DNA of 64,000 nucleotides, from contig JBQGDK010000144.1 in NCBI GenBank assembly GCA_052039025.1, positions 1,069 to 65,068 of the forward strand, in the 5' to 3' direction. This document shows, piece by piece, positions 21,318-29,856 of the stretch. This DNA is from Actinomycetota bacterium (lineage in GTDB: Bacteria; Actinomycetota; UBA4738; CALAEC01). The notes beneath the pieces are model-generated. The model did no database searches. It had not been told where the DNA came from and saw nothing but the letters and a program-made list of their open reading frames with translations. The position numbers were made by a program, and so were the translations under genes. Positions within the stretch are counted from its first letter, which is position 1, and each line of letters starts with the position of its first letter.

Positions 21318-22988
21318 TCAGCGCTCCGAGCGAGCAATCACATGGACGTCCACATTGGAGGCCCTCCGGATCAGCCGACTGACGAAGGATCCGCGTAGCA
21401 GTTCCTGCCACCGCGATCGCAGCGACTCCCCCACCACGATCTGCGTGACACCCTGCCGGTAGGCGAACGAGAGCGCTCCCTCGACCGGGTCCTCCGCCTC
21501 GACGATCTGAAACTCCCCCCCAAGCTCCTCGGCCAACCGCGTCATCCGGGCCCTCCATTCGGGGGCGGGATCCGCGTCCCCCGTGAGGATGTGCAGGACG
21601 ACCAGGTCGCCCCGAGCGCGCTGGGCCATCCTGGCCCCCCGGCGGACGAGCTGTTCGGGATCACCCGAGCCGGACACACACACGAGGATCCGCTCCCTGG
21701 TCTCCGGCGTCCTGGCCCTGGACCACCGCTTGAGAAGGTCCTCGTCCACCTTGTTCGCTACCCGCATGAGGGCGAGCTCGCGGAGGCCGGTGAGGTTCTC
21801 CGTGGTGAAGAACCTCCTCAGGGCCAGCTCCGCTTTCCGGGGGTCTGGGTAGACGTTGCCGTGGACCATGCGGCGCTGGAGGGCATACGGGGACATGTCC
21901 ACCAGCTCGACCTGATCGGCCAGGTCGAGAACCCAGTCGGGGATGGTCTCCTGCTGGCGGATGCCGGTGATCCCCGCCACCACGTCGTTGAGGCTGGCCA
22001 CGTGCTGGATGTTGAGCGTGGAGATGACCACGATCCCTTCCGCCAGGATGTCCAGGACGTCCTCCCACCGTTTGGCCCGCCGACTGCCGGGGATGTTGGT
22101 GTGGGCTAGCTCATCGACGAGGACCACTTCGGGTCGACGCCGGATGACGGCCTCGGCGTCCATCTCCTCGAAGGTCGTGCCGCGGTAGTCCAGCTTCTGG
22201 GGCGGGATGATCTCCAGCCCCTCGAGGATCTCGATGGTCTTCCGACGCCCGTAGGTCTGAACGATGCCCACCACGACGTCGGTGCCCCGGGAGAGGCGGC
22301 GCTGGCCCTCGCCGAGCATGGCGTATGTCTTCCCCACGCCGGGGGCCATTCCCAGGTAGACCCGGAGCGCCCCCCGCTTCCTGGCCTGAGCCTGCGCCTT
22401 GGTCCAAACGGTCTGGAGGACGGGCTGGGGGATGTCCCGGCCGGCCAGGGCCTCCACCGATTCAGAGCCCACCTGGGGCCCGGGGGCATCGCGCGCTGTC
22501 TCCCTGGTCTCGATGGCCACCTGCTGTTGCCGTTCGCGGCCGGCGACAGCCCTGGAACCGTTTCCCTCAACCGCGCGGGGAGCACGGTCCGCCCTCGATG
22601 ACGACCTTCCCGATCCTGGCCCCCCGCGCTCCCGGGAGGCCGTTCGCTGCGGGCTCTGGGCAGGGACCACGCCGAGGGCCCGCTCCAGCCGTCGTCGCTC
22701 TCGTCCCGACGCCACAATGGCCACCTCGTCTTCGTCCTGAAGGTGATTGATCGCGCTCTCCGGTCCGGCCGCCCAAATCTCATCGAGGGGTAGCTCAAGC
22801 GTGGGGGACAAGGCCAACGCCCCGTCGAGGATAGCTTTCTGCGCCGGCCCGATCTGGAGTCCGACGCTGATCAGGACCAACCCCCTCCCCCGAGCCGCCG
22901 CGTCTCGGGCGGCGACCTCAAGGTCCAGGTCTGCCGTGCGCCCGAGGACGAGCACCCGGCGCGGTCCTTGCGGACGCTCCTCGATCAC
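21318..22988 (-). CDS. kdpD: KdpD N-terminal sensor domain + universal stress protein domain (no TM/kinase part), fused into the kdp operon
   Basis: RVYLGMAPGVGKTYAML (KdpD P-loop) followed by a Usp-like domain; GTG start overlaps the kdpC stop; the ~180-aa N-terminal extension is of uncertain validity. Confidence 0.7.
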   Translation of the reverse strand: MIEERPQGPRRVLVLGRTADLDLEVAARDAAARGRGLVLISVGLQIGPAQKAILDGALALSPTLELPLDEIWAAGPESAINHLQDEDEVAIVASGRERRRLERALGVVPAQSPQRTASRERGGPGSGRSSSRADRAPRAVEGNGSRAVAGRERQQQVAIETRETARDAPGPQVGSESVEALAGRDIPQPVLQTVWTKAQAQARKRGALRVYLGMAPGVGKTYAMLGEGQRRLSRGTDVVVGIVQTYGRRKTIEILEGLEIIPPQKLDYRGTTFEEMDAEAVIRRRPEVVLVDELAHTNIPGSRRAKRWEDVLDILAEGIVVISTLNIQHVASLNDVVAGITGIRQQETIPDWVLDLADQVELVDMSPYALQRRMVHGNVYPDPRKAELALRRFFTTENLTGLRELALMRVANKVDEDLLKRWSRARTPETRERILVCVSGSGDPEQLVRRGARMAQRARGDLVVLHILTGDADPAPEWRARMTRLAEELGGEFQIVEAEDPVEGALSFAYRQGVTQIVVGESLRSRWQELLRGSFVSRLIRRASNVDVHVIARSER

Positions 22989-23566
22989 CCGTCCATCCCC
23001 CCGAGAGCCACGTTCAGCTCCAGGACGTTGACCCGCGGCTCCCCCAACAGCCCGAGGGATCTGCCCTCCGTGTGGCGTGTGATCAACGCGCGGACCTGGC
23101 CGAGTGGGAGGTCCCGGACGGCCGCGATCCGAGGAGCCTGGAACTCGGCCGCCGCCGGCGAGATGTGGGGGTCCAGCCCGCTGGCGGACGCGGTGAGGAG
23201 ATCGACGGGGATGTCCGAGGCCCTGAGGCCAGGCGTGTACGGGCCCTCCAACGCGAGGATCGCCGAGGCCCGGTGGCGGATCAGGTCAGCAAGCTCCTCC
23301 GACGTGGGACCAAGATTGGATCCGGACGAGGCCGCCGCGTCGTACTGCGCAGCCGAGGGACGCCCGTGGAACCACTCCTCCCCCTCCCACCTTTGGCCGA
23401 TCAGGGAGCTCCCCACGGGACGCCCGTCCACGCGTATGAGCGATCCGTCGGCCTTCTCGGGGAAGGCGATCTGGGCGAACATCGTCACAGCCAGCGGATA
23501 GACGACCCCGGTGAGGACGGCCAGGACCAGGACGGCGAGGAGGGCTCGGAGCTGTGTCCGGATCAC
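22985..23566 (-). CDS. kdpC: potassium-transporting ATPase subunit C
   Basis: [28 protein letters not shown]...[15 protein letters not shown] (KdpC signature); GTG start overlapping the kdpB stop. Confidence 0.8.
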
Positions 23567-29146: not shown

Positions 29147-29856
29147 TGAAGAAGGCTCGCGTGCTCGTCGTGGACGACGAGCAGCAGATCCGAAGGGCGG
29201 TTGGGCGTGCCCTCACGACCCGCGGGTACGAAGTGCTGGAAGCACGCGACGGAGAGGAGGCCCTGTCCGTGACGGCGGCCTCCGAACCCGATCTGGTCAT
29301 CCTTGACCTGAACCTGCCGGAGCGTGACGGGCTCTCCGTGTGCCAGCAGCTCAGGCGACGGAGTTCGGCACCGATCCTCATCCTCTCCGTGCGGGAGGAG
29401 GAGTCCGACAAGGTGGCCGCTCTTGACCTCGGGGCCGACGACTACCTGACCAAGCCCTTCGGGATCGAGGAGCTAATGGCCCGGGTACGGGCGCTCCTCA
29501 GGCGGGCGGAGACCCAGGGCGGGCCGAGGCCGGTGCGCTTCAAGAGGGACGACGTGGAGATCGACGTCGACACCCGCCGCGTGACCCGGAAGGGGGAGGA
29601 GGTCCGGCTGACCAAGACCGAGTGGGGGCTGCTCGAAGCCCTGTCGGAATACCCGGGAAAGCTGCTCACCCACCGGTGGTTGCTGGAGCGCGTATGGGGG
29701 CCGGGCTACTCGGAGGATCTCGACGTGCTCCGAGTCTTCATCAGCCAGCTACGGCGGAAGATCGAATCGGATCCGGGACGGCCGCAGATCATCGCCACCG
29801 ACCCGGGGATCGGTTACCGGTGGCTGCTGCGGCCAGCCGAAGAGCCGGACGAGTAG
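29143..29856 (+). CDS. kdpE: OmpR-family response regulator KdpE
   Basis: MMKKARVLVVDDEQQIRRAV...DLVILDLNLP receiver domain plus winged-helix C-terminus; ATGA overlap with the kinase gene. Confidence 0.85.
   Translation: MMKKARVLVVDDEQQIRRAVGRALTTRGYEVLEARDGEEALSVTAASEPDLVILDLNLPERDGLSVCQQLRRRSSAPILILSVREEESDKVAALDLGADDYLTKPFGIEELMARVRALLRRAETQGGPRPVRFKRDDVEIDVDTRRVTRKGEEVRLTKTEWGLLEALSEYPGKLLTHRWLLERVWGPGYSEDLDVLRVFISQLRRKIESDPGRPQIIATDPGIGYRWLLRPAEEPDE

Follow-up and report, generated by a model that had tools for sequence, protein, structure and literature searches.

A split KdpD system with a predicted, apparently undescribed domain on its putative serine-kinase chain in an uncultured Actinomycetota clade

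Results

KdpD is divided between two divergent operons

We analysed a stretch of 64,000 nucleotides from an Actinomycetota bacterium (hereafter the window; positions 1,069 to 65,068 of contig JBQGDK010000144.1, assembly GCA_052039025.1), which encodes a KdpFABC pump, the regulator KdpE and, as two separate chains, the sensor KdpD. The GC content of the 64-kb window is 66-72%. On the minus strand, a single operon runs from a 27-codon open reading frame (ORF) through kdpF, kdpA, kdpB and kdpC to a 556-codon ORF, with neighbouring genes overlapping via ATGA or GTGA. The product of the last gene, which we call chain 1 (21318..22988, minus strand), begins at a GTG that overlaps the kdpC stop codon as GTGA, bearing out the coupling to the 3′ end of kdpFABC proposed in a first-pass annotation made from the sequence alone. 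At the other end of the operon, beyond a divergent intergenic region (27455..27601) presumed by position alone to hold the kdp and kinase promoters, the plus strand carries the C-terminal-half KdpD histidine kinase (chain 2; 27602..29146). As first annotated, the next gene is kdpE (29143..29856); it overlaps the kinase gene at the stop codon of the latter and encodes an OmpR-type response regulator (Response_reg, E = 5.8e-33; Trans_reg_C, E = 7.8e-21).

Pfam searches on both chains supported most of the domain content proposed for them in the first-pass annotation. Chain 1 matched KdpD (PF02702) at residues 204-414 (E = 1.9e-88) and Usp (PF00582) at residues 432-550 (E = 1.2e-10), and the same search found no transmembrane (TM), HisKA, HATPase or further domain before the stop codon that follows residue 556. 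We delimit the N-terminal KdpD domain (KdpD-N), a putative atypical serine kinase module, as residues 190-424 (21717..22421, minus strand) and the Usp domain as residues 431-556 plus the stop codon (21318..21698, minus strand). KdpD-N aligned with 2r8r_A (E = 8e-66), and chain 1 covered positions 15-376 of the Escherichia coli KdpD model NF007793. Residues 200-553 also aligned with NF038185, the ‘KdpD-like non-kinase potassium sensor’ model (E = 8e-113), reaching 377 bits against a curated cut-off of 550 bits; chain 1 is thus homologous to this family and lies outside its curated set. The NF038185 model has no counterpart to residues 1-199.

Chain 2 matched DUF4118 (E = 1.2e-21; four TM segments), HisKA (E = 3.5e-13) and HATPase_c (E = 1.7e-25), and its H-box, AAVSHDLRTPL, is conserved. 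The GAF domain that had also been assigned to it gave weak matches under the Pfam cut-off. As chain 2 covers positions 395-883 of NF007793, the two chains together make up a complete KdpD, cut between the Usp and membrane domains. The kinase gene had been annotated as 27686..29146; its start is probably the ATG at 27602, 8 nt downstream of a GGAG, and the first ~35 residues are poorly conserved.

The split is a clade-wide state with published precedents

Comparison of kdp loci in relatives indicated that the division is not an assembly artefact. We collected 13 related loci from species-representative genomes (61-71% identity to the query; labelled Actinomycetota or Solirubrobacterales metagenome-assembled genomes). 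All 13 have a KdpD-N/Usp gene that lacks the kinase part, 12 have adjacent kdp pump genes and 11 have a divergent kinase, accompanied by kdpE in 10 of those 11; L011 and L012 end at contig ends. Split forms were found in these 13 genome loci and in 13 metagenome loci, and a check for assembly gaps found no Ns in the window. The split KdpD is therefore a real, clade-wide state.

Some relatives are arranged differently. In L004 (9490..12022), a third split layout places kdpABC, a 394-residue KdpD-N/Usp gene and a 444-residue kinase gene on the same strand; the kinase has a reduced membrane part, and the locus is without kdpE nearby and without the domain X described below. Further regulators related to potassium lie beside the kdp locus of some relatives: in L082, a second DUF4118 kinase/regulator pair has an amino-acid-permease-like gene and two TrkA genes as neighbours (11677..13739 and 14109..17864), and in L001 a DUF4118-only protein (18208..19047) is encoded 3′ of kdpE.

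The presence of both KdpD halves as separate genes flanking the operon had been put forward as a special feature of the window, a claim that does not stand because the same layout has been published. Deinococcus radiodurans has a kdpBAC-kdpD-N operon with the sensor kinase and response regulator divergent (Dani et al. 2017, PMC5716572). Alicyclobacillus acidocaldarius has the parts of its split kdpD in two divergently transcribed operons (Schleussinger et al. 2006, as cited in PMC11018627), and Anabaena is cited in the same source for the same split layout. A survey of 5495 species (Silberberg et al. 2024, PMC11018627) includes a class with one KdpD/Usp chain and one TM/GAF/DHpCA chain, most common in Acidobacteriota and Chloroflexota; in split species the serine-kinase chain remains downstream of the pump genes and the histidine kinase is separate. 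Short KdpD/Usp chains also occur in species without a kinase half or KdpE (PMC11018627, PMC6488665), and in the Bacillus cereus group a truncated kdpD follows kdpFABC in an operon under a cyclic di-AMP (c-di-AMP) riboswitch (PMC6488665). The locus described here adds one more phylum to this known pattern.

Chain 1 retains conserved serine-kinase residues

The N-terminal domain of KdpD is an atypical serine kinase that phosphorylates KdpB at Ser162 and so inhibits the pump (PMC11018627). Among homologues of chain 1, the Walker A motif GMAPGVGKT and the Walker B pair D292-E293, equivalent to E. coli D109/E110, are invariant. Chain 1 also has a tyrosine, hence an aromatic residue, at the position of E. 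coli Trp39, and R372/R373 lie in the segment that holds E. coli R190. Catalytic roles for these KdpD-N residues are reported in PMC11018627, where they are essential. On the substrate side, E165-S166 of the KdpB encoded in the window align with E. coli E161-S162, and a 19-residue block around the serine is identical. The ratio of non-synonymous to synonymous substitution rates (dN/dS) is 0.10-0.15 for KdpD-N and 0.08-0.28 across KdpD-N and Usp, indicating strong purifying selection. The conserved sequence thus suggests that chain 1 acts as a serine kinase on KdpB.

A predicted Rossmann-like domain precedes the putative kinase

About one-third of chain 1 (residues 1 to ~190) is neither KdpD-N nor Usp. 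These N-terminal ~190 residues, overlooked in the first-pass annotation, comprise a domain that we call X (residues 1-105; 22674..22988, minus strand) and a disordered linker (residues 106-189; 22422..22673, minus strand). The ORF does abut kdpC as first described; the abutting part is X and not KdpD-N.

Two size groups were apparent among the best 120 database homologues of chain 1, one of ~395 residues covering the C-terminal 70% of the query and one of 515-580 residues covering it whole. In the ~50 long-form homologues, residues 1-105 align without gaps (consensus RRVFVLGR..LDV..ELVLLSVGYPV..Q..ALRLA..LRLWLD..D.VT.LA.G.ERR.ERALG), followed by 60-90 unalignable residues rich in R, A, G, S and P, before the alignment resumes at GSESVEALAGR. 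The linker of ~80 residues is variable in length and sequence, has a predicted local distance difference test score (pLDDT) below 50 at residues 111-189 and evolves close to neutrality (dN/dS 0.42-1.0). X, with a dN/dS of 0.32-0.43, evolves faster than the kinase part and is still constrained. AlphaFold (AF2) predicts it as a compact, Rossmann-like domain of four beta-alpha units with pLDDT 90-95.

Searches of Pfam and NCBIfam with X returned no match, and its relatives are listed as ‘hypothetical protein’ in every source that names one. Using a profile of X against 1.84 billion cluster representatives, we retrieved 134 relatives, mostly stand-alone proteins of 100-120 residues. Across ~50 fused and ~90 stand-alone homologues the domain is conserved: G43 and Q50 are invariant in fused and free copies, R10, V12 and G16 are nearly so, and strand 2 is followed by a G-aromatic-P-x-S/T-x-x-Q loop. 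We considered X as a universal stress protein and rejected the assignment. The Pfam Usp model recognised 0/36 and 1/50 family members (best E = 0.014), and Usp structures found by Foldseek had template modelling (TM) scores of ~0.5 at E values of at least 3e-3. Judged by its conservation and predicted fold, X is a separate, real conserved domain of an unnamed family, and together with the linker it appears to be the only part of the locus that looks undescribed.

The public annotation of chain 1 (P0001, 545 residues) starts at GTG 22955, which removes Arg10, a nearly invariant residue, together with the residues that precede the first strand of X. By sequence comparison, the GTG at 22988 that overlaps the kdpC stop fits the homologues better.

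X follows kdpC in every X-bearing locus examined, fused or free

X was found immediately 3′ of kdpC in 25/25 X-bearing loci examined, fused to the kinase chain in 13 (the window, L082-L084 and L087-L095) and stand-alone in 12 (among L002, L003, L005-L013, L085 and L086). Ten of the 13 related genome loci have a stand-alone X, located on the kdpC strand within the ~350 bp that separate kdpC from the short, convergent KdpD-N/Usp gene. The gene encodes ~110 residues; in L002, the locus with listed ORFs, its start codon and the kdpC stop overlap. Two metagenome contigs picked via distant stand-alone members of the family show the same arrangement. In L082-L084 and nine further metagenome contigs, the fused X immediately follows kdpC on the same strand. 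A metagenome scan with a narrow X alignment returned fused forms only, and tblastn with the X of the window missed stand-alone copies that a profile search recovered.

No in-frame stop separates X from Usp in the window or in the 7 metagenome contigs checked, and gene calling gave a single gene in each of L082-L084. Fusions of X to KdpC seemed to be present in protein P0207 and, as long stop-to-stop ORFs, in L006-L012; these were traced to out-of-frame open frames or a frameshifted call and were discarded. The alternation of fused and free forms is a classical sign of a functional partnership between X and the KdpD-N/Usp kinase.

Pump genes and neighbouring features

The four pump genes, all on the minus strand, have clear family matches. 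The 29-residue kdpF (27285..27374) matches PF09604 (E = 1.4e-10) and TIGR02115 above its cut-off, and kdpA (25614..27284) matches PF03814 (E = 2.9e-227). The product of kdpB (23563..25614), identified with Pfam, contains the TGES motif and aligns with E. coli KdpB (6hra_B, E = 1e-268), while kdpC (22985..23566) matches PF02669 (E = 5e-71). The overlap between kdpA and kdpB is ATGA and that between kdpB and kdpC is GTGA, giving kdpC a GTGA overlap at both ends.

The first gene of the operon is a small hydrophobic ORF of 27 codons (27371..27454, minus strand) whose stop overlaps the kdpF start as ATGA. An AAGGAG-type ribosome-binding site, the strong site of the operon, lies 6 nt 5′ of its GTG. 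Homologues occupy the same position in L001-L013, L082, L083, L062, L072 and L076. Relatives share the pattern MLDVLMV..LTV..F....WLERV, and matching peptides in Glycomyces and Stackebrandtia read MPD..LALTV...VKAVEKL; each would form a single helix. Pfam and NCBIfam searches with the ORF gave zero family matches; its product may be a leader peptide or a second small subunit of Kdp that has escaped annotation.

A search for the c-di-AMP (ydaO) riboswitch found no Rfam match in the window at the gathering score, nor at E ≤ 1 within 27350-27750, and scanning the locus for promoters, terminators and repeats returned nothing above background. The leader contains one imperfect inverted repeat of 22 nt (27464..27509; 73% complementary) without an Rfam family, placed between the region of the divergent promoters and the small first ORF. 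On the far side of kdpE, a tyrosine integrase remnant (30009..30425, plus strand) retains the Arm-DNA-binding N-terminus (MQAMRGHVRKRRTWEFIVDIGQHP..RRQKSKSGF; PF14657, E = 7e-7). This N-terminus seems to join an LGHAS..YS-like C-terminal region, as though most of the catalytic domain had been deleted.

Discussion

A model for the locus

We consider it likely, at a probability of roughly 80%, that the locus represents the published type of split KdpD system, with an undescribed module, X, added on the serine-kinase chain. The domains, conserved residues, gene order and fusion/fission pattern are those observed above; from them we infer serine-kinase activity of chain 1, a potassium response of the locus and the roles of X. 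In a transcriptional arm, chain 2 would act as the membrane-embedded, potassium-sensing histidine kinase and, with KdpE, presumably activate the divergent kdp operon when potassium is scarce. In a post-translational arm, chain 1 would be made from the pump mRNA by translational coupling to kdpC and would bring the KdpD-N serine kinase and Usp to the system. X would be an accessory module of the pump operon that works with this kinase, most likely docking the soluble enzyme at the pump or gating its activity. In species with unfused forms, the expression of X is tied to the pump and not to the kinase, and in fused forms X is held on a long, floppy tether; these features favour docking or recruitment. 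By docking, X would bring to the pump a kinase that has lost its membrane anchor, and fusion would place both the synthesis and the location of the kinase under pump control. X is probably a Kdp accessory module, so far undescribed and linked to the serine kinase. It is possible, though we hold this only tentatively, that X goes further and constitutes an unrecognised sixth Kdp component of an uncultured Actinomycetota clade, a cytoplasmic protein co-expressed with the pump that either docks the KdpD-N kinase on KdpFABC or senses a nucleotide that gates it.

Several observations count against parts of this proposal. X is absent from the related split loci L001 and L004 and is hence dispensable in some lineages, and a quick neighbour-joining tree of the kinase core interleaves fused and unfused forms with no clean separation. 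The full-length AlphaFold model is confident for KdpD-N and Usp and assigns no confidence to interdomain placement, including that of X (predicted template modelling score 0.49). X lacks a significant match to known families: the best Foldseek match in the PDB has E = 2e-3 and a TM score of ~0.5, and the matches are mostly to nucleotide-binding proteins of the HUP class, Usp among them; an origin of X as a diverged copy of the Usp or KdpD-N of its own chain was unsupported (hhalign E = 0.23 and 0.46). A further point concerns the Usp domain of chain 1. In Staphylococcus aureus, the KdpD Usp domain binds c-di-AMP through SxS-X20-FTAxY, with Ser244 and Tyr271 required (PMC4686210). Chain 1 retains the SxS half as SGS and has LVVLH in place of FTAxY (FTAIY in S. 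aureus), with a nearly invariant histidine, His466, at the Tyr271 position, so that activation by c-di-AMP is not to be assumed here.

Alternative explanations

The first-pass annotation took the split to imply that the two KdpD halves act in trans. Here the chains would reassemble non-covalently into one sensor, with the KdpD-N/Usp half modulating signalling by the histidine kinase and KdpE. N- and C-terminal portions of KdpD from E. coli, when expressed apart, have been reported to complement one another. The two chains of the window are encoded at one locus and map to complementary parts of the E. coli protein (15-376 and 395-883), whose N-terminal domain matters for signalling (PMC2714519). 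However, KdpD-N/Usp is an autonomous serine kinase on KdpB (PMC11018627) and chain 2 holds the potassium-sensing TM/GAF part, so action in trans is not required. KdpD-N alone suffices for the serine kinase, and short KdpD/Usp chains exist where neither kinase half nor KdpE does (PMC11018627, PMC6488665). The closest relatives have the short chain on a convergent transcription unit of its own, and beside the operon of L083 no intact kinase or kdpE was called, tblastn finding kinase-like segments only and no kdpE match. We regard reassembly as an unlikely account of the split, although it is compatible with the serine-kinase system that we favour and does not exclude it. Even less room is left for the reading in which the 556-codon ORF is an annotation or assembly artefact, with X and KdpD-N/Usp being separate proteins or chain 1 a decaying remnant. 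In its favour, high GC content yields long open frames, a clear codon-position signal is missing from the linker (GC1/2/3 = 0.76/0.70/0.76), and translation of a short form could begin at the internal GTG codons 22472 and 22457. Against this stand the uninterrupted frame from X to Usp in the window and 7 metagenome loci, the single genes of L082-L084, the ~50 database proteins that share the architecture despite unalignable linkers, the lack of Ns in the window and a dN/dS of 0.1 on the kinase part. The artefact reading is largely refuted and we consider it highly improbable.

For X itself, the main alternative to docking is that it senses a small ligand, for example a cyclic or other adenine nucleotide, as an input to the serine kinase that replaces or supplements c-di-AMP binding by Usp. 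The predicted Rossmann-like fold, the nucleotide-binding HUP/Usp proteins that are its nearest structures and the incomplete c-di-AMP motif of the Usp domain in chain 1 are all consistent with this. In the model, the near-invariant R10, G16, G43-aromatic-P45 and Q50 would fall immediately ahead of strand 1 and after strands 1 and 2, in the places at which Rossmann-like domains usually have their ligand site. The G-aromatic-P-V-S/T-x-x-Q loop also aligns with the S-G-H-P-V-S loop of Csx15, a minimal CARF protein in which the loop serine and histidine contact the cyclic tetra-adenylate site (PMC13148439). However, the match to Csx15, the only profile match of X in the PDB, falls short of significance (E = 0.28) and is shifted by one strand. 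The ATP motif of Usp proteins, G-2x-G-9x-G(S/T), was not seen by eye in aligned X sequences, no motif search having been run, and a long, variable, disordered linker would be more typical of tethering than of allosteric coupling. Support for a ligand sensor is thin, and we think this role doubtful next to docking.

Implications

Silberberg et al. 2024 left open how short soluble KdpD/Usp kinases find KdpB and which signal controls them. X, translated right after kdpC and repeatedly fused to the kinase, is a concrete candidate for a partner of the serine kinase. If X were indeed a sixth Kdp component, its fusion to the kinase would mark the partnership, and X would supply the control or recruitment element that short KdpD/Usp chains without TM and GAF domains lack. 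Automated annotation names these proteins ‘KdpD’ or ‘Usp family protein’, which hides one-third of their sequence.

Comparison with known systems

The locus most resembles those of D. radiodurans and A. acidocaldarius, in which the KdpD-N/Usp gene is likewise the last of the pump operon and the kinase and regulator form a divergent operon immediately upstream. These systems belong to other phyla, their short chains have ~370-395 residues compared with 556 here, and no X or linker is reported in the accounts of them, which for A. acidocaldarius means its citation in PMC11018627. The short KdpD/Usp serine kinase of Deinococcus geothermalis and the class with one atypical serine kinase chain and one histidine kinase chain share with chain 1 the combination of KdpD-N and Usp without TM or kinase parts, the Walker A and B motifs and the TGES serine of KdpB; they differ in that chain 1 has an extra N-terminal domain and LVVLH for FTAxY, and the relatives of chain 1 are labelled Actinomycetota. 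The locus has every domain of E. coli KdpD (NF007793) in unchanged order, divided between two chains encoded on opposite strands. Bacillus thuringiensis also has an N-terminal-only KdpD downstream of the pump genes; there the operon has a c-di-AMP riboswitch and no kdpE (PMC6488665), whereas the window encodes kdpE and the kinase half and was negative in the riboswitch search.

Two further systems offer parallels for X. In the haloarchaeal kdpFABCQ operon, kdpQ is an extra gene directly after kdpC (PMC8303175, PMC7002104), as is X, a likeness of gene position. In E. coli, UspC binds the Usp domain of KdpD (PMC2714519); X may similarly be a small alpha/beta protein acting on KdpD but, unlike UspC, it fails the Usp profile tests.

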